From: Eubacteriales bacterium
GTDB lineage: Bacteria > Bacillota > Clostridia > Oscillospirales > CAG-272
Length of the DNA stretch: 54,334 nt
Direction of reading: 5' to 3'
Assembly (NCBI GenBank): GCA_051868045.1
Contig: JBJDZN010000078.1
Location: 1 to 54,334 of the forward strand
Shown here: piece by piece, positions 7,653 through 30,398 of the stretch
Numbering within the stretch: the first letter of the stretch is position 1
Layout: each line of letters opens with the position of its first letter
Notes under the pieces: generated by a model
What the model was told of the DNA's origin: nothing
Databases searched by the model: none
Seen by the model: only the letters and a program-made list of their open reading frames with translations
Made by a program: the position numbers and the translations under genes

Positions 7653-7671
7653 TCAGTTTGTCAATAAATCC

Positions 7672-7700: not shown

Positions 7701-7771
7701 AAAGAAAACTCCGTCGAAAGACGATTTCCTTCGGCGGAAGACGGTAAGACTTCCGAAAAGGGGCTTTTTCC

Positions 7772-8158: not shown

Positions 8159-8185
8159 AAAACAAGAAAGGTTTGGTACATAGTT

Positions 8186-9151: not shown

Positions 9152-9276
9152 AGCAATTGTGACGGTTTGCGCCCGTGATGAATTTACCGTATGCCCGAAT
9201 GGGTCGATGCGGCAAAGGGGCAAAAGCCAATCTGCGTAAAACAGCAACGAAAATCGGACTGTCCGTAAAAATGAAG

Positions 9277-9328
9277 ACAGAGTCGGGAGTGGCGTTTTGA
9301 ACTGCTTCCGACTCTGTTTTTGATTTTT
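9277..9328 (+). terminator. Intrinsic terminator after glcK
   Basis: ACAGAGTCGG...CCGACTCTGT stem followed by TTTTTGATTTTT. Confidence 0.8.
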
Positions 9329-9350
9329 GACGGGTTACCTTTTTTTACCC

Positions 9351-9379
9351 TTGACATTGCTCCAAACCTGTGCTAAAAT
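9351..9379 (+). promoter_or_regulatory. Sigma-A promoter for the CAP-domain protein gene
   Basis: TTGACA (9351-9356), 17-nt spacer ending TGC, TAAAAT (9374-9379). Confidence 0.7.
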
Positions 9380-9447
9380 AAAGGGGTCCGTTGAGACATC
9401 AATTTTTCGGCGGGAGCGTATTTCCGACCGGATGAAAGGAGTATTTT

Positions 9448-10791: not shown

Positions 10792-10804
10792 TGTAGAAAA
10801 TCAA

Positions 10805-10846
10805 AATGCGTGTTGCAGAATGTCTCTGCAACACGCATTTGTTTTA
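10805..10846. terminator. Bidirectional intrinsic terminator between the CAP gene and the sugar cluster
   Basis: AATGCGTGTTGCAG / CTGCAACACGCATT perfect 14-bp stem, flanked by an A-run upstream and TGTTTTATT downstream. Confidence 0.85.
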
Positions 10847-10857
10847 TTGTCGGGGGA

Positions 10858-11754: not shown

Positions 11755-11843
11755 TGAAAGTCATTCCTTTCCGTTCGTTTCATATTTTTTCATTTCATTT
11801 TCGCTTTCGTTTGTGCCGGAACCGGCACAAACTGACGGTTTTA

Positions 11844-12914: not shown

Positions 12915-12962
12915 TTTCAAGTACCTGTTTGTTTCTTATTTATAGGTTGAATCGGCGTAAAC

Positions 12963-13928
12963 TCAGAACCAATATGCCTTTCCTGCGGTTTCGCAGATCA
13001 AGACGTCCTTCAGGAAGGCAATGGCCTTCTCAAGACCTTCCTTGTTGGACATAAGCCCATCCTCGTGCTCGATGGAGATGGCTCCGTCGTAGCCCACGGT
13101 CTTGAGGGCGGAGATAATGCGGTTCCATTCCAGCTTGTCGTGACCGTAGCCCACGGTACGGAAGACCCATGCACGGTTCTCGATGTCGCCGTAGGACTTG
13201 GTGTCCAGAACACCGTTGACCTCTGTGTTTCGCTTGTCGATCAGGGTGTCCTTGGCGTGGAAGTGATAGATCGCACCCTTCAGTGCCTTGATCGCCGCCG
13301 CAGGATCAATGCCCTGCCAGAACAGATGGGAGGGATCGAAGTTGGCTCCGATGATGTCGCCGACGGCGGCACGGAGTCTTAAAAGGGTTTCGGGATTGTA
13401 GACCACGAAGGAGGGGTGCATCTCAAAGGCAATGTGCTTGATGTGGTGGCTCTCGGCGAATTTTGCCATATCCTTCCAGTAGGGGATGACCTTGGTGTTC
13501 CACTGCCAGTCGAGAATCTTCAGATTGTCGTCGGGCCAGGGGCAGACCACCCAGTTGGGGTAGATCGAGTTGTCGCAGTCGCCGGGGCAGCCGGAAAATC
13601 CGACTACGGTCTCAACACCCAGTGCCTCTGCGGCAAGGATGGCGTTGCGGAACTGACGGTCATAGTCTTCGGCAAGTTTGCGGTTGGGATGCAGGGGATT
13701 GCCGTGGCAGGAAATTGCCGAAATTTCAATGTCATACTTGTCGAGGAGTGCCCTGTAATTTTTCACTGCCTCGGGAGACGCCAACAATTCCTCAGGTTTC
13801 AGATGTGCGTTGCCGGGATAGCCGCCTGCGCCGATCTCGATCTGAGCCACACCCAGAGAGTGCAGATAACGGAGGGCGTCCTCAAAGGACATATCCGCCA
13901 GTACGGGATTCATAACACCCAGTTTCAT
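12963..13928 (-). CDS. Sugar phosphate isomerase/epimerase (xylose isomerase-like TIM barrel), paralogue 2
   Basis: 321 aa with RBS GAAAGGAA. Motifs IAFEMHP, YHFHAKD and ISIEHED are typical of the AP-endonuclease-2/xylose-isomerase-like fold. Confidence 0.82.
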   Translation of the reverse strand: MKLGVMNPVLADMSFEDALRYLHSLGVAQIEIGAGGYPGNAHLKPEELLASPEAVKNYRALLDKYDIEISAISCHGNPLHPNRKLAEDYDRQFRNAILAAEALGVETVVGFSGCPGDCDNSIYPNWVVCPWPDDNLKILDWQWNTKVIPYWKDMAKFAESHHIKHIAFEMHPSFVVYNPETLLRLRAAVGDIIGANFDPSHLFWQGIDPAAAIKALKGAIYHFHAKDTLIDKRNTEVNGVLDTKSYGDIENRAWVFRTVGYGHDKLEWNRIISALKTVGYDGAISIEHEDGLMSNKEGLEKAIAFLKDVLICETAGKAYWF

Positions 13929-13970
13929 ATGCGTAATTCCTTTCGATTTGTCAGATTTTAGTGAAATCGG

Positions 13971-14798
13971 TCAGATGCCCAGCGAGCGCAGATACTCTCT
14001 GGACTGTCTTGCCGCCTCGATGGAGGAAAGTTCATAGGACTGATCCTGTTCGACAATCACATAGTCGATGCCCACGTCCTCGGCTGCGGCGAGAATGGCA
14101 GGGAAGTCCTGAAGTCCCTGTCCCACGGGAACGAAACGGAAGCCGTTGTCCTCCTTGGAAACAGGCTCGGATGTCTTGCCACTGTCGTCGATCAGGGCAT
14201 AAACCGGACCCTGTGCCATCTTCTTGCAGACAAAATCCTTCAGATGGAGGGTTTTCATCTTGCCGATGTATTTTCTGAGGAACTCGCAGGGATCCACCCC
14301 TGCATAGCGTACCCAGCAGGTATCCACTTCGCCCTCGATTTTGTCGCCCATGGCGGCATAAATCTGCTCCAGAATGGGCTTTCCGTCCATCATCTGGAAC
14401 TCGAAATCATGATTGTGATAGGTCAGACGGATGCCCGACTTTGCCAGCAGATCGCTGACCTTTTTGAACATCTCAATGGTGGACTCAAATCTGCCGTCCC
14501 GGTAGTTTTCAATGCCGTACCAGGGGATAGCGCAGTATTTTGCACCGATGGTGGTCAGATAGTCCACTGCCTCCTGACCCTGTTCCATGAAGAGATCGGG
14601 TCCCTGATGGACCGAAATGCAGACAAGACCAAGCTCATCCAGCATGGAGCGGACCTCTTTTGCGGTGTGACCGAAGTAACCGGCAAATTCAACGTAGTCA
14701 TAACCGATTTCCTTGACCGCCTTCAGCGTGCCGAAGAAATCCTTCTCCATTTCATCCCGAACCGAGTAGAGCTGGAGACCGACTTTGAATGGTTTCAT
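13971..14798 (-). CDS. Sugar phosphate isomerase/epimerase (xylose isomerase-like TIM barrel), paralogue 3
   Basis: 275 aa with LTYHNHDFEF, TLHLKDF and YVIVEQD motifs. Confidence 0.82.
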   Translation of the reverse strand: MKPFKVGLQLYSVRDEMEKDFFGTLKAVKEIGYDYVEFAGYFGHTAKEVRSMLDELGLVCISVHQGPDLFMEQGQEAVDYLTTIGAKYCAIPWYGIENYRDGRFESTIEMFKKVSDLLAKSGIRLTYHNHDFEFQMMDGKPILEQIYAAMGDKIEGEVDTCWVRYAGVDPCEFLRKYIGKMKTLHLKDFVCKKMAQGPVYALIDDSGKTSEPVSKEDNGFRFVPVGQGLQDFPAILAAAEDVGIDYVIVEQDQSYELSSIEAARQSREYLRSLGI

Positions 14799-14971
14799 AA
14801 ATATAACCCTACCTTTCCGCTTTTCTGCCGGAAACCGGCAGAAAGCAACCTGAAAATGATCCCAATTTTCTTTTCCATGGGAATCGGAAATTCTGATGAC
14901 CGTCAGAAATTTTCACAAGGCTTCCTTTCTTCCTGTGTATGGCAGAAACCCTGTTCCTGACGGAGTCTGAA

Positions 14972-15002
14972 ACAGGGCTTCGGGCGAAAACCGAAGCCCT
15001 GT
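14972..15002 (-). terminator. Strong hairpin directly after the 15010-16191 oxidoreductase gene (possible partial terminator or processing site)
   Basis: On the minus strand: CAGGGCTTCGG-TTTTCGC-CCGAAGCCCTG followed by TTTCAG. The stem is perfect but the U-tract is weak. A second hairpin (TTCTGCCGG-TTT-CCGGCAGAA) lies at 14823-14843. Confidence 0.5.
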
Positions 15003-15009
15003 CAAAGTT

Positions 15010-16191
15010 TTATACCTCGGGAATTTCGATTTCGATCTCGTGACCGCACTCGGAGGAGCGGACGATACCGTCGATGATTGCCTGATTGTACAGAATCTGA
15101 GAGGAGGGAACAGGAGAGGAGCCGCCATTCTTGATGGCATCCAGGAAGGAACGGATCTTGAGATAGAACTCGCCCTCACGGGTGTTCTCCAGCATGGGAA
15201 TTTCCCAGCAGACCTCAGTGGTGGAGTTGGGCAGTGTGCGGTAAATCTTCATGGGTCCGCCGATAGAGCCGTTCCAGCACTCGGTGGAAGGAATGCGCAG
15301 ACCTGCTTTGGTACCCAGAATCAGGGTATCGCCTGCGGTGTCCATGTTCATTGCCCAGGAAATACGGAAATCAAGGAAGATTCCGCCCTCCAGACGGATG
15401 AATCCGCCTGCGAAGTCGTCAACGCCGAACAGATCGGCGTACTCTGCGGGCTTGCCCTCAGCCGTCCAGTAGGAGGGATCCTTGCCGAAGTAGTCGGTCT
15501 TGAAGCCGGTCACGGTCAGGGGCTTCGGATAGCCCAGAGCATTCAGGCACATATCCAGCGAATAGCATCCGATGTCTGCCATGGCACCGATACCTGCGGT
15601 CTTTTCCTCGATGAAGGAGGTTCCGAAGGGGGTAGGAATGCCTCTGCGGCGACCGCCGCCGGTCTGGATGTAGTAAACCTTACCCAGCTCGCCCGACTGG
15701 ACGATTTTTTTCAGCATCTGCATGTTGGGATTGAACCGGGGCTGGAATCCGATGGACAGGATCTTGCCCGACTTCTTCTCGGCACGCATAACCTCAACCG
15801 CCTCGTCAACGGTAACGGTGAAGGGCTTCTCCAGAAGCACGTTCACTCCATGTTCCAGTGCGTCGATGGCGCAGGGAGCGTGCTGACGGTTGTAGGTGCA
15901 GATGGATACGGCATCCAGATCGGGCTCTGCCTCCAGCATTTCGTGACCGGAGAGATAGCAACGGCAGTCGGGATTGCCCCAGTCCTTCATGAACTGTGCT
16001 GCCTTTCCGGGAACCAGATCGGCGGCCGCAACGATCTCAACGTCGGGCATCTTTTTGTACTCCGACATATGGGCTCCTGCGATCCAGCCGGTTCCGATAA
16101 TGCCGACTTTCAGTTTTTTGTCGGCGGTGATGACCTTTTCCTGCTGGTTTTCCTTGAAAGCATCAAGGCTTGAAACGGTTTTTGCGCTCAT
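15010..16191 (-). CDS. Gfo/Idh/MocA-family NAD(P)-dependent oxidoreductase
   Basis: Rossmann motif VGIIGTGWIAGAHM and EKP motif (VLLEKPF). AAAGGAGA abuts the ORF-track ATG at 16197, so the ATG at 16191 (MSAKTV...) has the proper spacing. Confidence 0.85.
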   Translation of the reverse strand: MSAKTVSSLDAFKENQQEKVITADKKLKVGIIGTGWIAGAHMSEYKKMPDVEIVAAADLVPGKAAQFMKDWGNPDCRCYLSGHEMLEAEPDLDAVSICTYNRQHAPCAIDALEHGVNVLLEKPFTVTVDEAVEVMRAEKKSGKILSIGFQPRFNPNMQMLKKIVQSGELGKVYYIQTGGGRRRGIPTPFGTSFIEEKTAGIGAMADIGCYSLDMCLNALGYPKPLTVTGFKTDYFGKDPSYWTAEGKPAEYADLFGVDDFAGGFIRLEGGIFLDFRISWAMNMDTAGDTLILGTKAGLRIPSTECWNGSIGGPMKIYRTLPNSTTEVCWEIPMLENTREGEFYLKIRSFLDAIKNGGSSPVPSSQILYNQAIIDGIVRSSECGHEIEIEIPEV

Positions 16192-16227
16192 AAACATTCT
16201 CCTTTTTTTGTATATTTTCTCCAGTAG

Positions 16228-16256: not shown

Positions 16257-16376
16257 ACTTTTCACAAGTCCATTATACCTTTTTGAAGATGGATTATCTA
16301 CCACTATCTTTACCATATCTTGAACAATTTTTACTTTTTGACTGGAATCAGAGAAAGAAGAGGCAGGGGGGTACGT

Positions 16377-17216
16377 ATGCGCAACGAAACCATATGGCTC
16401 AATGTTCCCGAAAGCAGGGTTCGGGTGGAGGAGTCGTTTGAAAACGGGGAAGGCAGAATCTGCGAGATGCACTACCACGATGAAATCGAACTGCTTCTGA
16501 TCCGTTCGGGGGCGGTGTCCTGTATCGTGGACGGCAAGGAATATCCGGCAAATGAGGGGGAGATTCTGGTTGTCAACTCCCGGGTTCCCCACTATACGGT
16601 GTCAAAGGCGAAGGGGTCCCGCTATCTTCTGCTTCAGTTCCGTATGGGTGAGTATCGGGAAGATGCCTTCCTGTCCGATCTGTACGCCTATCAGATCACC
16701 GGTCAGGTTCCCGCTCGGTCGCTGTCCGATCCCGCCATCGTTGATGCCATGGAGAAAATTCTTCGCGAATCCGACAGGCGGGAGCAGGCGTACAACTATG
16801 TGATCAAATCCTGCGTCTATCTCATCCTTGCCCGCCTGATCCGGCAGGAGGTTCTGCCCAATCCCGAAGAGAGCATCGATCGAACCGGTATCAAGCGGCT
16901 CCGTCCGGTGCTGGACTATATTGATAAGAACTACGCTGCCTCCATAACGCTGGAGGATGCAGGAGCCCTTCTGGGGCTCAATCCTTCCTATTTCTGCCGC
17001 CTCTTTCGTAGCGTGACCGGCTCTACCTTCACCGAATACCTGAATTATGTCAGAGTGAGGCATTCCGAAGTGCTTCTGCGCACCACCAATGAAAACATCA
17101 CTGCCGTGTCCATGGACGTGGGTTTTTCCTCGGTGACCTACTACAACCGGGTCTTCAAAAAGCTCATGAATTGCACTCCGTCCGTCTATCGCCAGCTTCG
17201 CTACCGCAATATCTGA
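16377..17216 (+). CDS. AraC-family transcriptional regulator (cupin sensor domain plus HTH)
   Basis: ATG at 16377 follows GGCAGGGGGG. The N-terminal cupin-like region includes MHYHDEIELLLIRSG. The C-terminal AraC HTH includes ITLEDAGALLGLNPSYFCRLFRSVTGSTFTEYLNYVRV...VGFSSVTYYNRVFKK. Confidence 0.9.
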   Translation: MRNETIWLNVPESRVRVEESFENGEGRICEMHYHDEIELLLIRSGAVSCIVDGKEYPANEGEILVVNSRVPHYTVSKAKGSRYLLLQFRMGEYREDAFLSDLYAYQITGQVPARSLSDPAIVDAMEKILRESDRREQAYNYVIKSCVYLILARLIRQEVLPNPEESIDRTGIKRLRPVLDYIDKNYAASITLEDAGALLGLNPSYFCRLFRSVTGSTFTEYLNYVRVRHSEVLLRTTNENITAVSMDVGFSSVTYYNRVFKKLMNCTPSVYRQLRYRNI

Positions 17217-17318
17217 CGGCAAATACCTGAATTTTTGAAAAGGGACAGGGGGTCATTCGACTTTTTTAATTTGTTGCTTTTGCACAAAAAAAAGAAGGAA
17301 TTTTAGGCAAGTCGCATC

Positions 17319-17347
17319 TTTACAAATCGCCCGATTTGTGGTAAAAT
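17319..17347 (+). promoter_or_regulatory. Sigma-A promoter for the cytochrome c operon
   Basis: TTTACA (17319-17324), 17-nt spacer ending TGG, TAAAAT (17342-17347). It would give a leader of about 175 nt before the ResB-like gene. Confidence 0.65.
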
Positions 17348-17526
17348 AAATTGGATTGGATTGGAAGGCAACAAATTCGGACAATATTCGTTCTTCTGTC
17401 CACGGGGGTTCGCTTTTCGGTTCGCATTATGCTTATCGTTGACACAGATTATCAGCCAAAAAGCACCTGACCTTTCCCAAAGACGGGTTGACGGCAGATG
17501 AATCCCCGACTTTTCCGTAAAAGGAG

Positions 17527-18534
17527 TTGGTTTACATCAAGAAATTCAATCGGATAGCGTATATATTGCTGTCTGTGCTGGTGGGAATCTTCCTGCTGGT
17601 TGCCGTATGCGCATCCTTTGCCGGCGATAACAGCCTGTTCACCGGTGATGGCGAGTCGATTCTGAGTCAGTGGGTACCTCTGATTCTGTTTTCGGTTTAT
17701 GCCCTGATACAGGTAGGCTGTCTTGCCCTCTACCGCTTCGGATTTGGAGTCTATAAGATCGGTTTTGTCCTTCTTCATGTGGGAATTCTGGTCATGCTGG
17801 TGGGATTTCTCGCCGGTGCTCTGGGAGGAGAGCAGAGCTACTTCAATCTGACTACAGGCAGTTATTATGACGGCTATTATGACAGCACCGGTAACTACAA
17901 CAGCCTTGGTTTTGGCATTCAGATCACCGATTTCACGGTGGAAAAGTACGAAAGCGGCTCGGATAAACACTATCACGCCGACCTGCTGATCACTGACACG
18001 TCAACAGGCGTTCAGGAAGAGGCAGTGCTGGAAGTCAATCACACCTATCGGAACAAGGGATGGAAGATCTATCTCATGTCTTACAGCGACGGCAAAACGG
18101 TGGGAGAGCTTGCAAACCGTCAGATTGACAACTCCTTTGAGGCAAACGGCTGGACTGAGCTTGCCGAAAAGATTGCCGCAGTGTACCCTGTGGATGCCGA
18201 GACAAGTTATCTGTGCTATAATCTGAATTCGGGTACCTATCGTGAGACGACAACGGACGCTTTGACCGTCAGTGCCACCATGCCCCTTTACGGTCATGTC
18301 GTGGTCGAGAACGGAAAGCTGACGATCTATGTTTACCCCGAGCAGGAGCTTCTCCTGTTCAAACAGGATCCCGGAGAATATGCTGTGCTGGTCGGCATGA
18401 TCATGATCTTTGTGGGTGCCGTTATGACCTGTCTTCTGCCCCGGCGGAAAAATACCGATAAGGATGAGACAGTGAAGACGAATGCCGACAGGGATTGTGA
18501 AAAATCCTCGGGCGGAAAGGCGGGTAAATCATGA
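17527..18534 (+). CDS. resB: Cytochrome c biogenesis protein ResB/CcsB (System II), short form
   Basis: 335 aa. It has an N-terminal TM, a TM with a conserved His (FVLLHVGILVMLVG), the ResB-type periplasmic signatures ITDFTVEKYESGSDKHYHADLLI and VNHTYRNKGWKIYLMSY, and a C-terminal TM. The stop overlaps the ccsA start (ATGA at 18531-18534). The start is uncertain because the TTG at 17527 directly abuts AAGGAG (17521-17526). Confidence 0.8.
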   Translation: MVYIKKFNRIAYILLSVLVGIFLLVAVCASFAGDNSLFTGDGESILSQWVPLILFSVYALIQVGCLALYRFGFGVYKIGFVLLHVGILVMLVGFLAGALGGEQSYFNLTTGSYYDGYYDSTGNYNSLGFGIQITDFTVEKYESGSDKHYHADLLITDTSTGVQEEAVLEVNHTYRNKGWKIYLMSYSDGKTVGELANRQIDNSFEANGWTELAEKIAAVYPVDAETSYLCYNLNSGTYRETTTDALTVSATMPLYGHVVVENGKLTIYVYPEQELLLFKQDPGEYAVLVGMIMIFVGAVMTCLLPRRKNTDKDETVKTNADRDCEKSSGGKAGKS

Positions 18535-19349
18535 CAGGACCGATTTTAAAGGTTATCGCACTTATCGCCGCCTTTCTCTACGGCGGGGCATTTGTTCTGG
18601 AGCTGATGTACGGGAATGCCCGGAAAAAGAATGACGATGAACAGGCGGCGAAAAGACTCCGTCTGATCAGCCGGACTTTCTGGGGACTGGGATTTGCGGC
18701 AAATCTGACCCTTGTGGTCAACAACTATCTGCATAACGGGTATGTTCCTTTTGTCAGTATCTATCAGGTTCTGACCTTCCTTGGAATCTGCTTTCTTCCT
18801 ATCTATTTCTATATGCATCTCGTCCGCAGGGGAGAGTGGATGGCACGGTATTTTACACTGGTACCCACGGTGATCATGTTGGGACTGGTCTTCATGGATG
18901 CGACCGATGTCTGGGAATTTCCTCCTGCACTTCAGTCGCCCTGGTTCGTCCCCCATATTCTGGTTTATATGATTGCCTATACCATGGGGGCCGTGGAATT
19001 TCTCATGTGCGTTCAGTCGGTGTTCACCACCAGCCGAAAGGATAAACTCCGTCTGGAGGGCGGCGTGTATGACTGCGTCTGCTTCCTGTTCCCCTTCATG
19101 ACCATGGGAATGTTCTTCGGAGCCATCTGGGCAAACGAGGTCTGGGGAGCCTTCTGGGCATGGGACTTCAAGGAGATCTGGTCTCTGGCAACATGGCTGA
19201 TCTATATGCTGTATCTCCACTTCAGAAGGGAACCGAAGCTGAAAAACATCGCTCCCGTTTTTGCGCTGCTGGGATTTGTGGGAATCGTTATTACCTTCCT
19301 TTTTGTGCAGTTTATTCCCGCAGCGTCTATGCACACCTATTCAACTTAA
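18531..19349 (+). CDS. ccsA: Cytochrome c biogenesis protein CcsA/ResC (haem handling, WWD domain)
   Basis: 272 aa, polytopic. Tryptophan-rich WWD motif WANEVWGAFWAWDFKEIWSLATW, with flanking His residues (PHILVYM, YLHF). Confidence 0.9.
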   Translation: MTGPILKVIALIAAFLYGGAFVLELMYGNARKKNDDEQAAKRLRLISRTFWGLGFAANLTLVVNNYLHNGYVPFVSIYQVLTFLGICFLPIYFYMHLVRRGEWMARYFTLVPTVIMLGLVFMDATDVWEFPPALQSPWFVPHILVYMIAYTMGAVEFLMCVQSVFTTSRKDKLRLEGGVYDCVCFLFPFMTMGMFFGAIWANEVWGAFWAWDFKEIWSLATWLIYMLYLHFRREPKLKNIAPVFALLGFVGIVITFLFVQFIPAASMHTYST

Positions 19350-19398
19350 GTCAATTGATTCATACCAATACAGGATAAGATTTAGGAGGTTATTTGGA

Positions 19399-21675
19399 AT
19401 GAAGCCAAAAGAAAAACAATCATCCTCATCCAAGCCGGACAGCGGCAGAAAATTCCTGCTCAGACGCTTTGGCATCTTTGCGGGTTTGACTCTGACGATG
19501 GCGGCATTGTTGGTGGGTCTTCTTGCCTGCAACAGAAATAAGCCGGGGGACACGTCAACGGATAATACGAACACAACTCCCCCGTCCACGACCGTTCCTT
19601 CCGGTGATTATCATTCGCCATCGGGCATATCCATGTCGGAAGATGGCGCATATGCCTATGTATCGGATGAGACGGGCTGTGCAGTCTACAAGATCAACAC
19701 GGCAGACGGCAGTATTGCGGCAAGCTATGTATCGGATCTGGCAGTACATAACGTAGTCGCAAGCGGAGATCGGGTATATGTTACCGAAGGAGCACTGGGC
19801 GGCAAGCTGGTGGTGCTGGACACCAATCTGGCGACCGTAGGCTCTGTTGTCACCGGTCATACTCCTTATGACGTGGTGATCACCGGAAATACCGCATATG
19901 TGGCAAACCGCTTCTCCAACAGCGTATCGGTGGTGGATCTGGGATCCATGACTGAGACCAAGGAAATCCCCGTCACCAGAGAGCCTGAGTCCATGGCACT
20001 TGCCGGAACAGAACTGTTTGTTGCCTGCCATCTTCCCGAAGATGCTGCCAACAGTGATGTTGTCAGCGCAAATGTGGATGTCATCGACACGGCAAGCAAT
20101 ACCGTCACCAAATCCATCAGTCTGGTCAACGGTGCGGGAAATGTGAAGGACATCGTGGTCACTTCCGACGGAAAGACCGCCTATGTGTCTCATGTGGTCG
20201 CTCACTATCAGTATCCGACCACCCAGCTTGACGCCGGATGGGTCAATACCAATGGTATCTCGGTTATTGATGTTGCCTCCAAGGAGGTCAAATACACCTT
20301 CCTTTTGGACGATCTGGAGCATGGCGCAGCCAATCCCTGGGGTCTGGCACTGTCTGAGGATAATTCCTACCTTTACTGCGCAATTGCGGGAACCGGTGAA
20401 CTGATCCGCACCAATCTGTCCAAACTGTCAACGCTGGTTTCCCGTGCCGGGAAGACCGGTTCTGCGGTAAGCGATGTTTCCGAGATTGTCAACTACATTC
20501 CTTTTGCGGCAACCGTTAAGGAGCGTATCGAACTGGGTGGAACCGGTGCCAGAGCCATTGCTTATGCCAACGGCAATGTCTATGTTGCCGAGTATTTTAC
20601 CGGCGATGTGAAGGTTGTGGACGGTAAGAATATGTCCGTTTCTTCTACGCTGCCAATCGGAACTCAGCCCGAAGCCGATGATGTTCGTCAAGGCGAGATC
20701 TATTGGAACGATGCCACCATCTGTTACCAGAACTGGCAGTCCTGCTCTTCCTGTCATCCTGACGCAAGATCGGGCGGCTTTAACTGGGATGAGTTGGGCG
20801 ACGGAATCGGGACGCCCAAGAATACCAAGAGCATGGTGATGTCCCTGCGGACTCCCGCTGCACTGGCAACCGGTATCGAACCCACTGCCGAGAGTAATAT
20901 CTACGGAAGCGTCAGCGGCACGCCTCTTATGAATGCCACAGCCGAGTCGGGTCATATTTCTGAGACGATCATTGCTTATTTGAAGTCTATCATTCCTGAA
21001 TCTTCACCTTATCTGAACGATGACGGAACTTTGAGCGATCTGGCTAAGCAGGGTAAGGAACTGTTCTCTGAGTACAACTGCTCAAAGTGTCACCCTGCTC
21101 CCCTCTATACGGATATGACGATTCGTAATACCACAACAACGGAGTTTGATCCCTCATGGGAACAGAGTCCTATGGATACCCCCACTTTGGTTGAAATTTG
21201 GCGTAGTGCTCCGTGGACCTATATCGGACACTTTACCGATATGACCGAGCTGGTAAAGTATATGGCAAATCAGTGGGGAAAGACCATCTCCGATGAGAAT
21301 GCCAAGGCACTGGCAGAATATGTTCTCTCCATTGGTTTGGAGGGCGAGACCTACGGAGCAGAGCAGATTCTCAACAGCGACAGTTCCTACAATACGCTGG
21401 TACCCGGTACTACGATCCGCTCTCTGACGGTTCGCCAGCAGGAAGAGGGCGCACCGAATGCAACGGTTACCCTGACCCTGTATGATGCAAGCGGCAATGT
21501 GATCGGTTCCGCCAGCGGCAGTATCACCGCAGGCGACTACAATACCATCTTCAATGTCACGCTTGATAAGGAAATCTCCGTTCCCGAAAACATCGGAGCA
21601 GATGCGTACTATGTGGTATCCATTAAGGACGCATCCGGCAATAATCTGGCAACAGATTTGAAAATCACCAACTGA
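19399..21675 (+). CDS. Lipoprotein: YVTN-type beta-propeller fused to a di-haem cytochrome c peroxidase/MauG-like domain, plus a C-terminal beta-sandwich-like tail
   Basis: 758 aa from the ATG at 19399 (RBS AGGAGG 19384-19389). Lipobox LLAC (Cys44). Repeated propeller blades: AYAYVSDETGCAVYKIN, GDRVYVTEG..LVVLD, NTAYVANRFSNSVSVVD, KTAYVSH, NVYVAEYFTGDVKVVD. Haem sites are CSSCH (nt 20743-20757) in GEIYWND...QSCSSCHPD and CSKCH (nt 21079-21093) in GKELFSEYNCSKCHPAPLYTD. TPTLVEIWRSAPWTYIGHF follows, matching the CCP PSLRN..APY.H.G pattern. Confidence 0.85.
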   Translation: MKPKEKQSSSSKPDSGRKFLLRRFGIFAGLTLTMAALLVGLLACNRNKPGDTSTDNTNTTPPSTTVPSGDYHSPSGISMSEDGAYAYVSDETGCAVYKINTADGSIAASYVSDLAVHNVVASGDRVYVTEGALGGKLVVLDTNLATVGSVVTGHTPYDVVITGNTAYVANRFSNSVSVVDLGSMTETKEIPVTREPESMALAGTELFVACHLPEDAANSDVVSANVDVIDTASNTVTKSISLVNGAGNVKDIVVTSDGKTAYVSHVVAHYQYPTTQLDAGWVNTNGISVIDVASKEVKYTFLLDDLEHGAANPWGLALSEDNSYLYCAIAGTGELIRTNLSKLSTLVSRAGKTGSAVSDVSEIVNYIPFAATVKERIELGGTGARAIAYANGNVYVAEYFTGDVKVVDGKNMSVSSTLPIGTQPEADDVRQGEIYWNDATICYQNWQSCSSCHPDARSGGFNWDELGDGIGTPKNTKSMVMSLRTPAALATGIEPTAESNIYGSVSGTPLMNATAESGHISETIIAYLKSIIPESSPYLNDDGTLSDLAKQGKELFSEYNCSKCHPAPLYTDMTIRNTTTTEFDPSWEQSPMDTPTLVEIWRSAPWTYIGHFTDMTELVKYMANQWGKTISDENAKALAEYVLSIGLEGETYGAEQILNSDSSYNTLVPGTTIRSLTVRQQEEGAPNATVTLTLYDASGNVIGSASGSITAGDYNTIFNVTLDKEISVPENIGADAYYVVSIKDASGNNLATDLKITN

Positions 21676-21692
21676 ACAGGAGGTCAGATGAA

Positions 21693-24600
21693 ATGAACGA
21701 GACAAAACGAAAAGGACTTCTTGGAAAAATTCTGGTTCTCTCTGTGGCACTTGTCATGATCGTGACGCTGGTGTGCATTGCACTGCCGTCCGAAAGTTAT
21801 GCGGCGACCACCATTGAGAGATCCGAAATGCTGGACGATATGATGAACATGGCGACCAGCTATGTTGTCGTCTACCATAAGCAGCTTGGCGGATCCCACT
21901 ACGCCTATTCCGAAGGTTTGGCAGAAGAGTCAAACGATGGCAGTACCAGCGTAGAGGGTAACGAATCAGTCTTCAATCCCGGTTCCAAGATGACTCTTAT
22001 CACCCTTTCCTATCAGGATGGTAATGTCGTTAAGGAAGAAGCAACACTTGTCAGATGCAGCAGCGGTGTCATCCGTGATCCTGACGTGTCGCCGGACGGA
22101 ACGAAGATCGTATTCTCCATGAAGGAGAAGTCAACCGATGATTACCACCTGTACATTTTCGATCTGACCACCGGTAAGAAGACGCAGATCACCTTCGGCA
22201 GCGGTGTTGCTGATATCGAACCCGTCTTCTGTGCCGACGGCAGCATTATCTTCAACTCTACCCGTGACATTCAGACGGTTGATTGCTGGATAACTCCTGT
22301 CTCCAACCTCTATAAGTGTGATGCCGACGGCAGTAATATTACCCGTCTGGGATACGATCAGGTTCATACCACCTATCCCACCACAACCGAAGACGGTCGT
22401 ATCCTTTATACCCGTTGGGACTACAACGACCGGACTCAGATGTATGTCCAGGCAATCTTCCAGATGTTTGCCGACGGTACCAATCAGACCGAGGTTTACG
22501 GTAACGATCTGTCCAACCCTACTTCGCTGATTCACACCCGTGAAATCCCCGGCGCAGACGGTAAGTATATCACCATCACCTGCGGACATCACCAGGTACA
22601 GTGCGGTAAACTGGCGATCCTGAATACCAATCTGGGCAGAGACGTGTCGTCTGCAATCGACTATGTCTGGGACGACAGTTACACGAAGCAGCTTGAAAGT
22701 TCCTACGATAATGATACGGCATATTATCAGCAGGGAAGAGTCTATAAGTACCCTTATGCCATCAATGAGGACACCTTCCTTGTTTCTACAGCAGAAACCT
22801 ATTCCGGTGTCAGCACCGCCTTCAATATCGAACTGATTAACACAAATGGAGACTCGGTTGTGATTGCCGAAGGTAATACCAGCTTCCCGGCAAGCCAGAT
22901 CGTTCCGATCAAGACGACAGCTCTGTTCAACCGTGCCTCTCTTGTCGACTACAGTATGAATTACGGCTACTTCTATGTCGGCAATGTTTATGACGGTCAG
23001 GATATTGCGGTCGGTACCGTCAAGTATCTGCGTGTTGTAGGACTTGAGTTCCGCTCTTCTGCAATCGGTGCAACCAACGGCAGAGGCACCGGTTCTTCCG
23101 ACCCCTACTCCCCTGTTTCAACCGGTAACGGTTCATGGGATGTCAAGGAGGTTTTGGGTATTGTACCTGTCTACGAGGATGGATCAGCACTCTTTACCTG
23201 TCCTGCGGGCATACCGGTCTACTTCCAGCTATTGGATGAGAACGGCTATGTGGTGCAGACCATGCGAAGCTGGTCTACCCTCCAACCCGGCGAATACTTC
23301 TCCTGTATCGGATGCCATGTGGATAAGAATCAGGCACCCTCTACCAATGCCAAAGTCACGCTTGCCATGAATAACGGCGTCTGCGAGTTGCAGCCTGATC
23401 TGTGGATGTCCTCCTTTGAGGAATATGAGGGCTTCGATCCCTATGTGGACGATCCGATCGGATTTGATTATCTTACCGTTGTTCAGCCCATTCTGGATCA
23501 GAGCTGCGTAAGTTGTCACAGCGACTCTGTCACCGCTTATAAGGATATTGCGGCAACTGCACTGGGCGAAGGCTTTGATGCGACACTGGCTGACTACCTG
23601 TTCACGACCCGTGACAGCTGGTACTATACCACTACGACACCTGCGGCTGATTGGAAGACCGCCGATGTCAGCGCAGACTGGACACTGGACTACGGTCCCT
23701 TCGGTAAGATCGGTACCGCTCCCGGCTCCATCAATACCGTCTGGACTTCCAATGAGATCTATCTGAGAAAGACGGTTTCGGTCACCAATGCTGAACTGAA
23801 CTCCTACTTGCTGAATCTCTACCTGGCTTATACCGGTACGGTTGAGATTTCGGTCAACGGAACCGTTATCTATACCGGATCCGGCGAACAGACCCAGTTT
23901 ACCAATGTCACCCTGTCCGGCGACGCAGTCAAAGCGTTCAAGCTTGGAAACAATGAGATCGCAGTCAAAGTGACGGCAACCTCTTCGGGCGGTCAGTTCT
24001 TTGACATGGCATTGATCCGGAGTCTGGGTGGCTCGTCCGGAAGCTCTGGCGGAACGGTGACCCTCTTCTCCAAGGGATCCGAATGGACTTATACCACCAG
24101 TTCTGCCGACAGTTACGGCTTCGGAACTGCTGGCGATTGGACTTCAGCCGACTTCGATACCACCGGATGGCTGACCGGTAAGACTCCCTTCGGCAACCGT
24201 GTGGTTGGTCAGACGACCGATTGGGCGACCAAGGGCAATAACTACCTGTGGGCAAGAAAAACCTTCACCGTAGATGATCTTTCCGATCTGGGTGCCTCCT
24301 TCGGTCTGTACATGAACGTCTTCTATGACGATGACTTCTATGTCTTCCTCAACGGTCACCTGATCTTCAGTAACCCCGGAAAGTGGAACGATGCTTATGA
24401 GGACATCAAGACCACCGGCGCAGCCTATGTAAAGCAGGGCGAGAACGTGATCGCCATCTGCCTGCATCAACATGACGGCGGCTATGAGTTTGACATGAGC
24501 CTGTATACGGTTCCGACGGCAAGCAATGTGGAAATCTCTCTGCAGAGTACCGATGTTTATGCCCGCCGTATGAAGAAGGCATTCCCTCTGTCCTATCTGG

Positions 24601-25763
24601 TGCTGACTGCATCCAAGGGCGAGAGCAGCGGACAGTTTGTTGCAACTTCTGTCAATAAGTATACCAACTGGGTATCTTCCATGAGCCAGTGTGAAATGCT
24701 CAGCCCCTATTCCTACGGCGCATATAAGTCCAATCTGATCAAGATGCTCCGTGAAGGTCACGGTGATCTGACCGAAGAGGAAATTCGTGCGATCGCTTGC
24801 TGGATTGACCTCGGCGTTCCCTGCTACGGTACTTACGATGTGAAGGAGTACTGGGGAACCAATGAGATCCGCGAGTTCGAGGAAGAGGAAAATAAGCGTG
24901 AGTTCTACGAAAAACTCAACGAGTATGCTATCCTTGCCCGTGCCGGTCAGACCCCTGCCGGTGAGATTACCATCTCCTATACTCACAGTTCCAGTGTGGA
25001 TTCCGTTACCGGTGAGGGTATGGTTACCCTGTACTACGATTCCAAATATGCGGCAGGTGATACCATTTCGGTAAAACTTCCCGACGGTCAGAAGTATCTG
25101 GGACTGTCCCTGTCCTCCAGAGTCGGAGAGAGCATCATTTACTGCCCGAACTCCACCTTTGAGATGACCCTGCCCGATCTCAGAACCTGCTATCCCAATA
25201 CCATGGATCCCAACCTGGCAGTCGATTATATTGTGAATACCATTACCGCAAGAATCGTTCCCGAGAGCGAATTGACGGAGGTTCACAATCTTGCCCAGAA
25301 CTCTTATGACCTGACCAATGCCAGTGGTTCCTATCCTCATGTGACGGCATCCTCGGTCAAGGAAAATAAGGCATATTTCGAAGCCCGCAACCTGATTGAC
25401 GGCTTCACGGCAAACCGTGATAAGGGCGAGTATCCGAGCCAGTCCTGGGAGGCTCAGAAGTTTGACGAAAGCACGACGCTGACCATCGACTTCGGTCGGA
25501 CCGTGAAGGTCGATGAACTGGTATTCTATATCCGTCGCGCAAGCGGTGACTCTTACTTCACCAATTGCACGGTAACGCTGTCTGACGGAACCGTTCTGCC
25601 TCTGTCGCTGACCGATTCCCGTGACGCACAGACCATTGATCTCGGCGGCGTTGAGACCACGTCCCTGACCTTCTCCGGATTTGTTGTCGAGACTTCGATC
25701 AACAACGGTTCTTATGCCGGAATTTCCGAGATTCAGGTTATGGGTACCGAGGTACTCGGATAA
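21693..25763 (+). CDS. Giant secreted protein: PD40/TolB-like beta-propeller, two CxxCH haem c sites (HzsA-like arrangement), two galactose-binding-like modules and a C-terminal F5/8 type C (discoidin) domain
   Basis: 1356 aa with RBS AGGAGG 21678-21683 and signal peptide ...CIALPSESYA/AT. PD40-type blades: DPDVSPDGTKIVFSM...YHLYIFDLTTGKKTQITFG, PVFCADGSIIFNS, TTEDGRILYTRWDYNDR. Haem sites are CIGCH (nt 23304-23318) and CVSCH (nt 23505-23519). Two similar modules occur: WTLDYGPFGK...IYLRKTV...VEISVNGTVIY and GWLTGKTPFGN...LWARKTF...DDFYVFLNGHLIF. The C-terminus is discoidin-like: NLIDGF...TLTIDFGRTVKVDELVFYIRR...GISEIQVMG. Confidence 0.85.
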   Translation: MNETKRKGLLGKILVLSVALVMIVTLVCIALPSESYAATTIERSEMLDDMMNMATSYVVVYHKQLGGSHYAYSEGLAEESNDGSTSVEGNESVFNPGSKMTLITLSYQDGNVVKEEATLVRCSSGVIRDPDVSPDGTKIVFSMKEKSTDDYHLYIFDLTTGKKTQITFGSGVADIEPVFCADGSIIFNSTRDIQTVDCWITPVSNLYKCDADGSNITRLGYDQVHTTYPTTTEDGRILYTRWDYNDRTQMYVQAIFQMFADGTNQTEVYGNDLSNPTSLIHTREIPGADGKYITITCGHHQVQCGKLAILNTNLGRDVSSAIDYVWDDSYTKQLESSYDNDTAYYQQGRVYKYPYAINEDTFLVSTAETYSGVSTAFNIELINTNGDSVVIAEGNTSFPASQIVPIKTTALFNRASLVDYSMNYGYFYVGNVYDGQDIAVGTVKYLRVVGLEFRSSAIGATNGRGTGSSDPYSPVSTGNGSWDVKEVLGIVPVYEDGSALFTCPAGIPVYFQLLDENGYVVQTMRSWSTLQPGEYFSCIGCHVDKNQAPSTNAKVTLAMNNGVCELQPDLWMSSFEEYEGFDPYVDDPIGFDYLTVVQPILDQSCVSCHSDSVTAYKDIAATALGEGFDATLADYLFTTRDSWYYTTTTPAADWKTADVSADWTLDYGPFGKIGTAPGSINTVWTSNEIYLRKTVSVTNAELNSYLLNLYLAYTGTVEISVNGTVIYTGSGEQTQFTNVTLSGDAVKAFKLGNNEIAVKVTATSSGGQFFDMALIRSLGGSSGSSGGTVTLFSKGSEWTYTTSSADSYGFGTAGDWTSADFDTTGWLTGKTPFGNRVVGQTTDWATKGNNYLWARKTFTVDDLSDLGASFGLYMNVFYDDDFYVFLNGHLIFSNPGKWNDAYEDIKTTGAAYVKQGENVIAICLHQHDGGYEFDMSLYTVPTASNVEISLQSTDVYARRMKKAFPLSYLVLTASKGESSGQFVATSVNKYTNWVSSMSQCEMLSPYSYGAYKSNLIKMLREGHGDLTEEEIRAIACWIDLGVPCYGTYDVKEYWGTNEIREFEEEENKREFYEKLNEYAILARAGQTPAGEITISYTHSSSVDSVTGEGMVTLYYDSKYAAGDTISVKLPDGQKYLGLSLSSRVGESIIYCPNSTFEMTLPDLRTCYPNTMDPNLAVDYIVNTITARIVPESELTEVHNLAQNSYDLTNASGSYPHVTASSVKENKAYFEARNLIDGFTANRDKGEYPSQSWEAQKFDESTTLTIDFGRTVKVDELVFYIRRASGDSYFTNCTVTLSDGTVLPLSLTDSRDAQTIDLGGVETTSLTFSGFVVETSINNGSYAGISEIQVMGTEVLG

Positions 25764-25800
25764 TCCCTGACAGCAAAATCAGTGCTGTTGAATAAGTAAT

Positions 25801-25860
25801 ATCCCCCATAGTGCAGACACTTGAAACCATCTTTCAAGGTCGCACTATGGGGGATTTTAT
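25801..25860 (+). terminator. Intrinsic terminator closing the cytochrome c operon
   Basis: 14-bp perfect stem ATCCCCCATAGTGC / GCACTATGGGGGAT with an inner hairpin (CTTGAAA/TTTCAAG), followed by TTTAT. Confidence 0.8.
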
Positions 25861-25951
25861 GTATCGGGAAATCCTGTTTTTGCCGCCTATCGCAATTATT
25901 GCAGTTTTCAGATCGGGAAGTCCTTTTTTCCCTTCTTTTCTGCCAAAACTA

Positions 25952-28190: not shown

Positions 28191-28219
28191 TTGACATTCG
28201 GCTCCATTTACGGTAAAAT
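28191..28219 (+). promoter_or_regulatory. Sigma-A promoter for the GH25 gene
   Basis: TTGACA (28191-28196), 17-nt spacer, TAAAAT (28214-28219). The ORF-track start at 28191 is this -35 box, so it was rejected as a start codon. Confidence 0.7.
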
Positions 28220-28262
28220 AGGGGAAAATACCCCAAATTTTACCGAAGGGAATGGTCAGATT

Positions 28263-30398
28263 ATGAAGAAAAAGCTGCTACTCGTGTTTTTGATTGTGTT
28301 CATCCCCGTGATGGGTTTTACTTTTCATATTGTGGCAGAGTCTGCCGGACAGGCAACTGTCCAGGGAGGGGTGACCGTGCTTACACAATCGGAGGGCGGG
28401 CTTGAGGTTCGCAATGTCTACGCATCCGAGGTCACATATTCTTCCGCCACGCTGAATATCAGTTTCGGACGGATCAGCGTGTCCGATTGTACCCTGCTGC
28501 TGGGCACCTCCCCTGAAGCCATGGAGGAGGTTTCTACGCAAAACCTCGGAAAGGCGGCGTCCTCCCTGTCCATGACGGCATCCGACCTTGCCCCCCATAC
28601 CCGCTATTATTACGCCTTCCTGATCGGAACAGAGGAGGCGGTCATCCGTACTGACAGTTGGTCCTTTGTCACGCCCGACGACTATTATAACGGCTCACAG
28701 GGCGGTGCCAATGACGAAAATGCCGAATACGGCATTGACGTGTCCTTCTGGAAGGGTTCCATCGACTTTACCAAGCTGGCTGACCAGAATATCGACTTCG
28801 TGATTCTGCGTGCCGGGTCAACCAAGGGGAAAGATACCTATTTTGAGGAGCATTATGAGCAGGCAAAAGCGGCGGGACTGAAGGTCGGCGTGTATTACTA
28901 CTCCTATGCCATGAATATGGAGGAGATCGCTCAAGATGCCGACTGGTTTCTGGAGTACATTGCCGGGAAAACCTTTGATCTTCCCGTCTATCTGGACATT
29001 GAAAACATCAGTCAGGAAGAAAATCTCAGCCGTCCCCTTCTTACGGAAATGGCGATCGAATTCTGTGAACGGATTGCCGATGCGGGCTACTATCCCGGAA
29101 TCTATGCCAATCGGAACTGGTTTACCAACTACCTGAATTTTGACACTCTTTCTCCTGTCTATGAGCTGTGGATTGCCTCATGGACCAAGAGCGGAGAGCC
29201 CGACGGCGATTACAGTGAAAACTACGGAATGTGGCAGTATTCCAGCAGTGGAAAGCTCGATGGGGTCAATGGGGCAGTCGATATGAACGTCTGCTATAAG
29301 GATTATACCAGCCTGATCCGTCAGGAAGAACGGTCAACCTACGGTTTCTACGACTACGACGGAAGTTTGCTGATCACGGCTGAATATTATCCCGGCAATC
29401 GGATCTATGCACCCGACCTGACGCCCGCCCGCCCCTGCGACGACGAATATGAGTACACCTTCAGCGGATGGATCGGACTTGATGAAAATACGGTTGCCGA
29501 CAGTGCCGGTGGAAGTTTTACGGCAAGGTATACCCCAAACGAGCATGCTTGGGGCGATTGGCAGGAGATTTCTCCCTTTGAGCGGGTCAAGGTCTGCGAG
29601 AACTGCGGACGCACCCTGTCCGAACTCATAGACGATCCCACCTGCGGTCAGGGGCTTACTTGGTCGATTGACGGAGAGACTTTGACCGTGATCGGTAACG
29701 GGGCAATACTGTCCGGCGAGTCGGCAATCCGTTTTCCGTGGGCAAGTCGGGCGACCGAAATCACAAAACTGGTGATCTCGGAGGGAGTCACCGTTATCGG
29801 AGATCATGCCTTTGACGGATTCACGGCTCTGACCGAGGTTCAACTGCCTTACACGCTGACTACCATCGGAGAGTATGCCTTCTGCGGCGATGTCGGACTG
29901 ACCGAGATCGCAATCCCTGCACAGGTCCGGACGATTTCAGAATATGCTTTTGAAGGCTGTACGGCACTTTCAACGGTCAAGGGATACGAAAACAGTGCGG
30001 CTCAGACGATGGCAGAATCTGCCGGTGTTTCGTTCGTCACGCTGTCGCCGTGGCTTCAGAAGAGCGGTCGATTTGGAAACGGGGTCAGTTGGTACCTTTA
30101 CAGCGACGGAAGTCTCCTGTTTGCCGGCATCGGAGCCATTCTGCCCGACGGCGGCTATCAGGCATACAGCCAACAGATTCTTTCTGTCAAAGTTGGTGCG
30201 GCGATCACCGAAATTCCAGAGGGTGCCTTTCTGGACTTCACATCTTTGGAGTCGGTGGAATTTCTGGGTAAGAACCCCGTCAAAGTGGGAGACTCCGCTT
30301 TTGTCGGATGCACCCGTCTGTTCACGATAAACCTTCCGAGAGGGTCGGAGTTTGCCGAAAACGCCTTTGACGGCACCCCGATTGTGTCGGACTTCTGA
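28263..30398 (+). CDS. Secreted GH25 muramidase (lysozyme) fused to BspA-type leucine-rich repeats
   Basis: Signal/TM segment MKKKLLLVFLIVFIPVMGF. An N-terminal Fn3-like segment is present (SATLNISF...TRYYYAF). GH25 core: GIDVSFWKGSIDF, DFVILRAG, GVYYYSYA, VYLDIE, MWQYSS. C-terminal repeats of the type I.EGVT.IGD.AF.G...L..V.LP are present (e.g. VISEGVTVIGDHAFDGFTALTEVQLPYTLTTIGEYAFCGD). Confidence 0.85.
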   Translation: MKKKLLLVFLIVFIPVMGFTFHIVAESAGQATVQGGVTVLTQSEGGLEVRNVYASEVTYSSATLNISFGRISVSDCTLLLGTSPEAMEEVSTQNLGKAASSLSMTASDLAPHTRYYYAFLIGTEEAVIRTDSWSFVTPDDYYNGSQGGANDENAEYGIDVSFWKGSIDFTKLADQNIDFVILRAGSTKGKDTYFEEHYEQAKAAGLKVGVYYYSYAMNMEEIAQDADWFLEYIAGKTFDLPVYLDIENISQEENLSRPLLTEMAIEFCERIADAGYYPGIYANRNWFTNYLNFDTLSPVYELWIASWTKSGEPDGDYSENYGMWQYSSSGKLDGVNGAVDMNVCYKDYTSLIRQEERSTYGFYDYDGSLLITAEYYPGNRIYAPDLTPARPCDDEYEYTFSGWIGLDENTVADSAGGSFTARYTPNEHAWGDWQEISPFERVKVCENCGRTLSELIDDPTCGQGLTWSIDGETLTVIGNGAILSGESAIRFPWASRATEITKLVISEGVTVIGDHAFDGFTALTEVQLPYTLTTIGEYAFCGDVGLTEIAIPAQVRTISEYAFEGCTALSTVKGYENSAAQTMAESAGVSFVTLSPWLQKSGRFGNGVSWYLYSDGSLLFAGIGAILPDGGYQAYSQQILSVKVGAAITEIPEGAFLDFTSLESVEFLGKNPVKVGDSAFVGCTRLFTINLPRGSEFAENAFDGTPIVSDF

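Follow-up and report, generated by a model that had tools for sequence, protein, structure and literature searches.

Why should a fermentative, sporulating gut bacterium keep a machinery for building c-type cytochromes? The question is raised by contig JBJDZN010000078.1 of the Eubacteriales bacterium assembly GCA_051868045.1, of which positions 1–54,334 of the forward strand were analysed (the window in the following). Four genes on its forward strand (17527–25763) encode a System II cytochrome c maturation pair (genes 1 and 2) and two large exported proteins with two haem motifs each (genes 3 and 4). System II (CcsBA/ResBC) attaches haem covalently to CxxCH motifs on the outer face of the membrane, and among fermentative gut Clostridia, covalent c-type cytochromes count as a rarity. 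Hydrazine synthase (HZS), to our knowledge, was long thought to lack homologues. An initial annotation of the locus knew of no characterised homologue with such a layout in Firmicutes; the two cargo proteins are not orphans, as genes 3 and 4 are homologues of the fused β-γ subunits and of the α subunit of HZS, respectively, and non-anammox homologues of this kind were published in 2025 (PMC12758564). We consider it rather probable that the module combines System II with two HZS-type clients into a four-haem redox enzyme of the cell surface, which does not make hydrazine and probably acts on a glycan-associated substrate.

Gene 3 (19399–21675), whose ATG start is preceded by an AGGAGG ribosome-binding site, encodes a protein of 758 residues. 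Its N-terminus is a predicted lipoprotein signal, with a hydrophobic segment leading to the lipobox LLAC (Cys44) and then to a Ser/Thr/Pro/Asn-rich linker. This is followed by a seven-bladed YVTN propeller resembling HZS β, a di-haem domain resembling HZS γ and, over the last 100 residues, a β-sandwich in the structure model. In sequence searches, residues 70–406 matched HZS β (PDB 5c2v_B) at 1.6e-19 and residues 426–568 matched HZS γ (5c2v_C) at 2.2e-10. With a profile of 25 orthologues, these values became 7.4e-31 and 1e-29, while the best peroxidase for the same profile was 3o5c at 1.8e-15 (1iqc and 2c1u were also matched). The structure model (pLDDT 80, pTM 0.82) has 5c2v_B as its top fold match (TM 0.84, E 1.5e-22), and the best NCBIfam model is hydrazine_BC ("hydrazine synthase beta-gamma fusion"), with the order β then γ matching as well. 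The first haem motif, CSSCH (20743–20757; Cys449/Cys452/His453), aligns with CASCH of 5c2v_C and corresponds to haem γ-I, the second, CSKCH (21079–21093; Cys561/Cys564/His565), to haem γ-II; both are invariant in the 25 orthologues. The "WD" segment that follows haem 1 in HZS is common to gene 3. Within the propeller, the blade-6 loop is the most conserved segment, with P273, Q276, D278, W281 and N285 invariant; in HZS β, this loop lines the inter-subunit tunnel between the two active sites. A further, nearly invariant Cys442 (20722–20724) lies seven residues before haem motif 1 (CYQxWQSCxSCH) at a position occupied by Ser in HZS γ, and could serve as a ligand, as a redox-active thiol or as an additional link to haem.

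Gene 4 (21693–25763) encodes an exported HZS-α-like protein of 1356 residues. From N- to C-terminus it comprises a signal peptide, a six-bladed TolB/Tricorn-type propeller, the HZS_alpha middle domain, two haem motifs and, past the second of these, two galactose-binding-like inserts, a conserved segment with His1023 and a terminal DUF7402/F5_F8-type domain. Its β-sandwich domains span residues 640–960 and 1216–1349, approximately. The HZS_alpha model, which the initial annotation had proposed to search with, matches at 2.9e-31, the domain ending in the first CxxCH; the other Pfam finds are DUF7402 (4.4e-09) as well as F5/8-type C and GH2_N-like domains. Gene 4 matches HZS α (5c2v_A) at 4.6e-07 by sequence and 2.2e-12 by profile, and the model of residues 1–696 has 5c2v_A as its top fold match over the whole length (E 1e-22, 710 columns), with TolB at 2.7e-11. 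For the α-like and γ-like parts, HZS outranks every other PDB match by more than 10 orders of magnitude. The homology is hence backed by sequence, family profile, fold and curated models. Motif CIGCH (23304–23318; Cys538/Cys541/His542) aligns with CSGCH of 5c2v_A and corresponds to haem α-I; it never varies in the family alignments, and its conservation across 86 proteins of several phyla is 98%. Motif CVSCH (23505–23519; Cys605/Cys608/His609) corresponds to haem α-II. Exactly two CxxCH are carried by 81 of the 86 α-like proteins, which also share a long list of invariant polar propeller residues of a kind that would be typical of a catalytic or metal-binding pocket. The segment holding His1023, a candidate distal haem ligand, is conserved across all phyla. 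PDB sequence searches with residues 630–960 and 940–1356 returned nothing significant, and the C-terminal half gave only a weak profile match to the sugar-binding region of a rhamnosidase (E 0.001).

Compared with the anammox enzyme of Kuenenia stuttgartiensis (PDB 5C2V; NCBIfam hydrazine_alpha, hydrazine_beta, hydrazine_gamma and the fusion model), the Clostridial pair has the same domain set with four CxxCH in total, i. e. a β-type seven-bladed propeller with its blade-6 loop, a γ-type di-haem domain of peroxidase-like fold, and an α-type protein with six-bladed propeller, HZS_alpha middle domain and two haems, and the β-γ gene likewise lies upstream of α. In contrast, identity in the fold alignments is only 15–23%, the α haem motifs are 67 residues apart instead of about 102, and the sugar-binding-like and DUF7402 domains of gene 4, the lipoprotein anchor of gene 3 and the module's own System II are additional. 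Moreover, the pair comes from a fermentative, spore-forming Firmicute, and anammox genes are lacking in its vicinity. In HZS, Tyr591 of α is the proximal ligand of haem α-I while the CxxCH His is diverted to a zinc site, Cys165 of γ forms a third covalent bond to haem γ-I, and His144 of γ sits between the two γ haems (PMC12758564). No Tyr occurs within 10 residues after CIGCH in gene 4 (CIGCH-VDKNQAPSTNA; family consensus CVGCHEDKNTAPP), so the ligation of haem α-I by His is probably the ordinary one. The stretch between residues 452 and 561 of gene 3 lacks Cys, which leaves no equivalent of γ Cys165; the segment with Cys165 is an insertion of HZS relative to gene 3 and, in the family profile, aligns to a non-Cys consensus position. 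Finally, γ His144 aligns to Ala490, a variable family position beside a Val-Met consensus, in a part of the model with low confidence. The NCBIfam scores likewise remain far below the equivalog cut-offs, with 40.8 versus 800 bits for α, 70 versus 560 for β, 47.3 versus 625 for γ and 75.7 versus 1250 for the β-γ fusion, and genes for hydrazine dehydrogenase or octahaem proteins of the hydroxylamine oxidoreductase (HAO) type are absent from the 54-kb window and the Clostridial loci examined. Because the HZS-specific catalytic residues are missing, hydrazine would not be produced; judged by these residues, genes 3 and 4 are not a functional hydrazine synthase.

How would such proteins receive their haem? 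Gene 1 (17527–18534) encodes a mini CcsB/ResB-like subunit with four membrane helices and His84 in helix 3 (Pfam ResB, 3e-22, profile positions 151–280), and gene 2 (18531–19349), by Pfam and conserved residues, CcsA, the haem-handling subunit with the WWD motif (Cytochrom_C_asm, 2.7e-28). The ResB/CcsB and CcsA peptides quoted in the initial annotation are all present. Uncertain is the start codon of gene 1: TTG 17527, which yields 335 residues, abuts a GGAG ribosome-binding site with zero spacer; TTG 17566, which yields 322 residues and is the start in the public gene call, has no obvious ribosome-binding site. Among 17 orthologues, the ResB-like family spans 230–335 residues and has four hydrophobic segments, with His84 in the third kept in at least 90%. 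Among 13 CcsA orthologues (253–286 residues), H142, W200, W205, W209, D212, H230 and H268 are kept in at least 90%. System II haem handling needs transmembrane and outer-face histidines, as established for CcsBA, and the conserved His residues of the two genes (His84 in the ResB-like protein; H142, H230 and H268 around the WWD motif in CcsA) correspond to these. The pair thus shares with canonical CcsBA/ResBC the WWD motif with its flanking His, the four helices and transmembrane His of CcsB/ResB, and translational coupling. It differs in the size of the ResB-like protein, whose family is short because the outer domain is much smaller (Bacillus subtilis ResB has about 540 residues), in having no adjacent ResA/CcdA, and in being embedded with just two client genes. 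Since the outer domain is small and gene 2 scores 134 against an NCBIfam equivalog cut-off of 188, genes 1 and 2 are best described, from their sequences, as an intact yet divergent, minimal System II haem lyase. To describe the module as self-contained goes too far: across 23 Clostridial loci, neither a ResA/CcdA-type thiol-reduction gene nor a haem-supply gene recurs in the module, and apart from the four genes and an AraC-type gene (see below), every gene family recurs in at most three of these loci. Thiol-reduction genes may be located elsewhere in the genome or be dispensable under anoxia.

The family is by no means confined to this contig. In a clustered protein collection, gene 4 has more than 1,100 homologues, of which the best 120 are 40–70% identical, 1,200–2,200 residues long, labelled "hypothetical" and derived from metagenome-assembled genomes (MAGs) of Clostridia, Eubacteriales, Oscillospiraceae and Lachnospiraceae. 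When residues 1–696 were searched exhaustively, 984 clusters (at 50% identity) reached E ≤ 1e-30. A scan of species-representative genomes gave at least 561 matching stretches that encode relatives, hosted by gut and rumen Clostridia, many Planctomycetota, Verrucomicrobiota, Armatimonadota, Lentisphaeria, Kiritimatiellales, Fibrobacterota, Anaerolineales and one Coriobacteriia genome. Neighbourhoods were then compared by profile searches over 29 Clostridia-type loci and 61 loci from other phyla. In the former, α occurred in 28, β-γ in 27 and ResB and CcsA in 21 each, with the cargo genes adjacent in 27 of the 29; in the latter, α was found in all 61, β-γ in seven, and ResB and CcsA in none. 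The order ResB-CcsA-β-γ-α is present in about 18 distinct Clostridial loci. Examples of MAGs with the module are GCA_965352945.1, GCA_012840445.1 and the source of SRR30616790. All four CxxCH are invariant in 16–25 diverse orthologues, as expected for the two exported propeller cargo proteins, one with a lipobox and one with a signal peptide, that had been postulated. The idea that the maturation genes are dedicated to this cargo pair, which the initial annotation would have given up if the four genes were not co-conserved or the motifs not kept in orthologues, is therefore strengthened. Nevertheless, a minority of genomes depart from this linkage: the cargo pair stands alone in three loci (L002, L006 and L023), the maturation pair lies 9 kb off in L022, and it stands alone in L089. 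The latter locus (7544–11116) encodes a full-size ResB (486 residues) and CcsA; the next gene specifies a lipoprotein that matches SBP_bac_8 (a substrate-binding protein family) faintly and lacks CxxCH, and no cytochrome is found within 9 kb of the pair; System II and its clients are unlinked in that genome. Among the seven β-γ genes of other phyla, four (L040, L044, L070 and L078) lie directly downstream of α. In one of these, from a Phycisphaerales MAG (L070, 9515–14005), the α-like and β-γ-like parts share a single open frame of 4.5 kb, which may be a genuine fusion that unites all three HZS-type modules, or else the result of an overlooked stop codon.

In other species, Dockerin_1 domains score above the Pfam cut-off on both partners, at the C-terminus of α-like and at the N-terminus of β-γ-like proteins, where gene 3 has its lipoprotein anchor. 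Such type I dockerins were seen in locus L004 (10001–15352) and in P0028, P0058, P0105, P0206, P0210 and P0219, belonging to certain Lachnospiraceae and Oscillospiraceae relatives. Dockerins on both partners imply c-type cytochromes on cellulosome-like scaffolds.

From these observations, a working scheme can be drawn. The products of genes 3 and 4 would be exported by the Sec system, and on the outside of the membrane their four CxxCH would then receive haem from CcsBA. The α-like protein may then dock on the membrane-tethered β-γ protein to give a surface enzyme with four haems and two active sites, which in relatives with dockerins would sit on the cellulosome instead. The peroxidase-related γ-type haem would most likely turn over a small oxidant or reductant, while haem α-I and the invariant polar pocket of the α propeller could have a second substrate outside the cell. 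Dockerins and sugar-binding-like domains, together with the AraC-type regulator and the glycan-degrading lifestyles of the host phyla, suggest that this substrate is probably glycan-associated, with the β-sandwich domains supplying targeting and expression probably being governed by the adjacent AraC-type sensor. Several points weigh against this scheme. The module has no gene for an electron donor or acceptor partner. The glycan link derives from dockerins and accessory domains, and conserved neighbouring genes for carbohydrate-active enzymes do not back it. Outside Firmicutes, 54 of the 61 loci have the α-like gene without β-γ within 10 kb, and the α/β-γ complex may therefore not be obligatory. 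The model of gene 4 residues 1–696 is of moderate confidence (pLDDT 72). Finally, where HZS has His and the cytochrome c peroxidase (CCP)/MauG family has Trp between the two γ-type haems, the present family has a variable small or hydrophobic residue, so the chemistry between the haems may differ from that of all characterised relatives. The weakest links are the electron partner, the substrate and the frequent lack of β-γ beside α outside Firmicutes.

Alternative functions have to be weighed against this surface redox enzyme. That the locus encodes a genuine hydrazine synthase, with anammox-like N-N bond formation in a Clostridium, would accord with the presence of homologues of all three subunits and with the anammox order of β-γ before α (PMC12758564). 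It is nonetheless highly improbable, as the NCBIfam scores amount to 40–76 bits against equivalog cut-offs of 560–1250, the α-I Tyr, γ Cys165 and γ His144 are missing, no hydrazine dehydrogenase or HAO gene is nearby, and other non-anammox homologues were likewise judged not to be HZS (PMC12758564). A related proposal dispenses with hydrazine: the γ-type haem could reduce nitric oxide (NO) or nitrite to hydroxylamine or ammonium, as has been proposed for HZS γ, and the surface complex would thereby detoxify NO, nitrite or hydroxylamine that stems from host or diet. The γ-like domain is indeed nearer to HZS γ (1e-29) than to any peroxidase (1.8e-15) and keeps the HZS "WD" segment, and both nitrite and NO are present in gut and rumen habitats. 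However, γ Cys165 and γ His144 are absent in this case too, genes of the nitrogen cycle, such as those for nitrite reductase, NO reductase or HAO, are neither present in the window nor recurrent among the related loci examined, an electron donor is likewise not encoded, and the sugar-binding-like domains and dockerins are left unexplained. Handling of nitrogen oxides thus appears quite unlikely.

A surface peroxidase, in which the di-haem domain reduces H2O2 to shield an oxygen-sensitive anaerobe while the α-like protein serves as electron donor or scaffold, would draw on the weak CCP_MauG and cytochrome c Pfam matches of gene 3, on the PDB matches 3o5c (1.8e-15), 1iqc and 2c1u, and on weak RoxA-like and MbnH-like matches. 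Yet CCP_MauG scores 19.9 bits, below its gathering cut-off of 25.6, and the CCP/MauG inter-haem Trp, which we take to be that of the FWDGR motif of Pseudomonas CCP, is replaced in the family profile by a variable, non-aromatic residue. In addition, a peroxidase would have no need for a strongly conserved partner of 1,300 residues with two haems and an invariant polar pocket, and there is no known electron route to it from a fermentative cytoplasm. We therefore regard a peroxidase as unlikely. Four haems anchored at the outer face of a Gram-positive membrane might also be taken for a respiratory or extracellular electron-transfer conduit that relays electrons from the membrane to an external acceptor. 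Against this stand the count of just two haems per protein, the large propellers with invariant polar pockets, which indicate catalysis rather than a wire, and the genomic setting: as the initial annotation had recognised, the window is otherwise fermentative, housekeeping and sporulation-related (HprK, Ldh, SpoIIAB, SigF, ValRS and UvrD), and neither module nor window encodes a quinol dehydrogenase or membrane cytochrome. A conduit is accordingly very unlikely.

The di-haem superfamily includes extracellular enzymes that act on macromolecules, such as MauG on protein and RoxA on rubber. With the peroxidase/MauG/RoxA/MbnH proteins, gene 3 has in common the two-haem c-type fold and weak profile matches; it differs by its sub-cut-off scores, the lost inter-haem Trp, the fusion to a propeller and the HZS-α-like partner. 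Hagglund et al. described distant α and fused β-γ homologues in 2025 from Planctomycetota, Desulfobacterota and a few others, in which key HZS residues are not conserved and which were not called hydrazine synthases (PMC12758564). Their clades I–IV, hosted by Planctomycetota, Desulfobacterota, Acidobacteriota and Verrucomicrobiota, also feature co-located α and fused β-γ genes (here 17 nt apart) with canonical haem motifs, and clade IV resembles the present locus in having no FG-GAP/CRTAC1 or ABC-transporter neighbours (PMC12758564). In contrast, the order in clades I–III is α then β-γ, and clade I has extra multihaem domains (PMC12758564). Clostridial proteins (Oscillospirales, 1,223–1,225 residues) appear there only as rows of a supplementary hit table, and the ResB-CcsA operon, lipoprotein anchor, sugar-binding-like domains and dockerins of the Clostridial form are undescribed in that work (PMC12758564). 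A literature search on HZS-like proteins or System II in gut Clostridia and on dockerin-bearing cytochromes found nothing on the Clostridial operon. The Clostridial module is best seen as a Gram-positive form of the HZS-like haem proteins, with lipoprotein or dockerin anchoring, carbohydrate-binding-like domains and its own minimal System II.

A considerably bolder proposal, which we rate as a long shot, is that these proteins constitute an unrecognised class of surface- or cellulosome-bound c-type haem enzymes of gut and rumen Clostridia and of many glycan-degrading Planctomycetota, Verrucomicrobiota and related bacteria. They would share an ancestor with HZS and use two sites for redox chemistry on a polymer outside the cell or on a substrate derived from glycans, as an anaerobe's counterpart to RoxA and the lytic polysaccharide monooxygenases, and the Firmicute System II would be kept solely for them. 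Either way, the module is a conserved, apparently single-purpose cytochrome system in many uncultured lineages of the human, ruminant and poultry gut, all members of which carry the annotation "hypothetical". Its Clostridial form is small (four haems) and combines the anammox gene order and the β-γ fusion with a compact maturation system of its own, which makes it an attractive, genetically simple system in which to study the ancestral role of the HZS-type scaffold and the cooperation of its haem sites. The versions with dockerins or sugar-binding domains hint at anoxic redox chemistry on plant or host glycans, which, if true, would be new enzymology, and the mini-CcsB/CcsA pair may serve as a compact haem-attachment cassette.

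With regard to gene organisation, open reading frame (ORF) calling agrees with the layout originally given, i. e. four co-directional genes with an ATGA overlap of genes 1 and 2 at 18531, a gap of 49 nt between genes 2 and 3 and one of 17 nt between genes 3 and 4. The four CxxCH at 20743, 21079, 23304 and 23505 are the sole ones in real exported proteins of the window. Two further CxxCH strings occur in its long open frames; these were excluded as cytochromes, one (43096) belonging to ValRS and the other (4891) to a frame antisense to a HAD hydrolase gene. An intrinsic terminator (25801–25861, +), a hairpin of about 24 bp followed by UUUUAU, closes the unit; at −40.6 kcal/mol (z = −7.82, with 0 of 200 shuffles folding as well), it is as strong as had been claimed. 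The near-consensus promoter reported upstream fared less uniformly. The σ70-type site at 17319–17347 (+; TTTACA, a 17-nt spacer and a TG-extended TAAAAT) matches 10 of 12 positions, but this score alone is no better than chance, with nine sites of such quality seen versus 9.8 expected. What speaks for it is that two relatives, L008 and L088, keep the −35 and extended −10 elements at the corresponding position. The motif TTGCACAA (17280–17287, +), some 32 nt ahead of the −35 element, is identical in the window and the same two relatives within otherwise diverged intergenic DNA, and may be an operator or binding site of a regulator. The 5' leader of about 180 nt has no Rfam match and folds no better than shuffled sequence (z = 0.17); a riboswitch or attenuator was discarded on these grounds. 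A candidate for operon control is the gene at 16320–17216 (+), which encodes an AraC-family protein with cupin sensor and helix-turn-helix domain (Pfam AraC_binding, Cupin_2 and HTH_18) and matches AraC/MelR/RhaS-like NCBIfam models below their cut-offs. An AraC-type gene adjoins the module in seven Clostridial loci.

The neighbouring genes of the window encode HprK, Ldh, SpoIIAB, SigF, ValRS, EngA, PlsY and UvrD, thus comprising housekeeping, fermentative and sporulation functions. Recent horizontal acquisition of the operon in this window was discarded because its GC content and that at third codon positions equal the values of the flanking genes. The four genes are one operon that is native to a sporulating gut Clostridium. 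Divergent from the AraC-type gene lies a block (10858–16197, −) of two GFO_IDH_MocA oxidoreductase and three xylose-isomerase-like TIM-barrel genes, whose products are cytoplasmic and of sugar type; their matches to inositol dehydrogenase, glycoside 3-dehydrogenase and IolE models are all below cut-off. Only in the closest relatives (L002, L008 and L088) is the cytochrome module found together with this block. Near the α-like genes of other phyla, GFO_IDH_MocA-type families were found in seven and xylose-isomerase-like families in five of the 61 loci. Both families are very abundant in such genomes. A general tie between the module and these sugar-oxidation genes was dropped except as a weak lead, as only the closest relatives share the block. 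The arrangement may reflect a functional link to keto-sugar metabolism, or merely shared synteny and background abundance. Four ORFs of the reverse strand (1221–2450, 3054–4007, 7661–9247 and 40600–41484; 294–528 residues) remained unmatched in Pfam at E ≤ 1e-5. The region is flanked by two genes for surface or secreted proteins, namely a GH25 lysozyme fused to BspA-type leucine-rich repeats (28191–30398) and a CAP-domain protein (9448–10791), and a GH25 gene with leucine-rich repeats likewise lies downstream of the module in L088.

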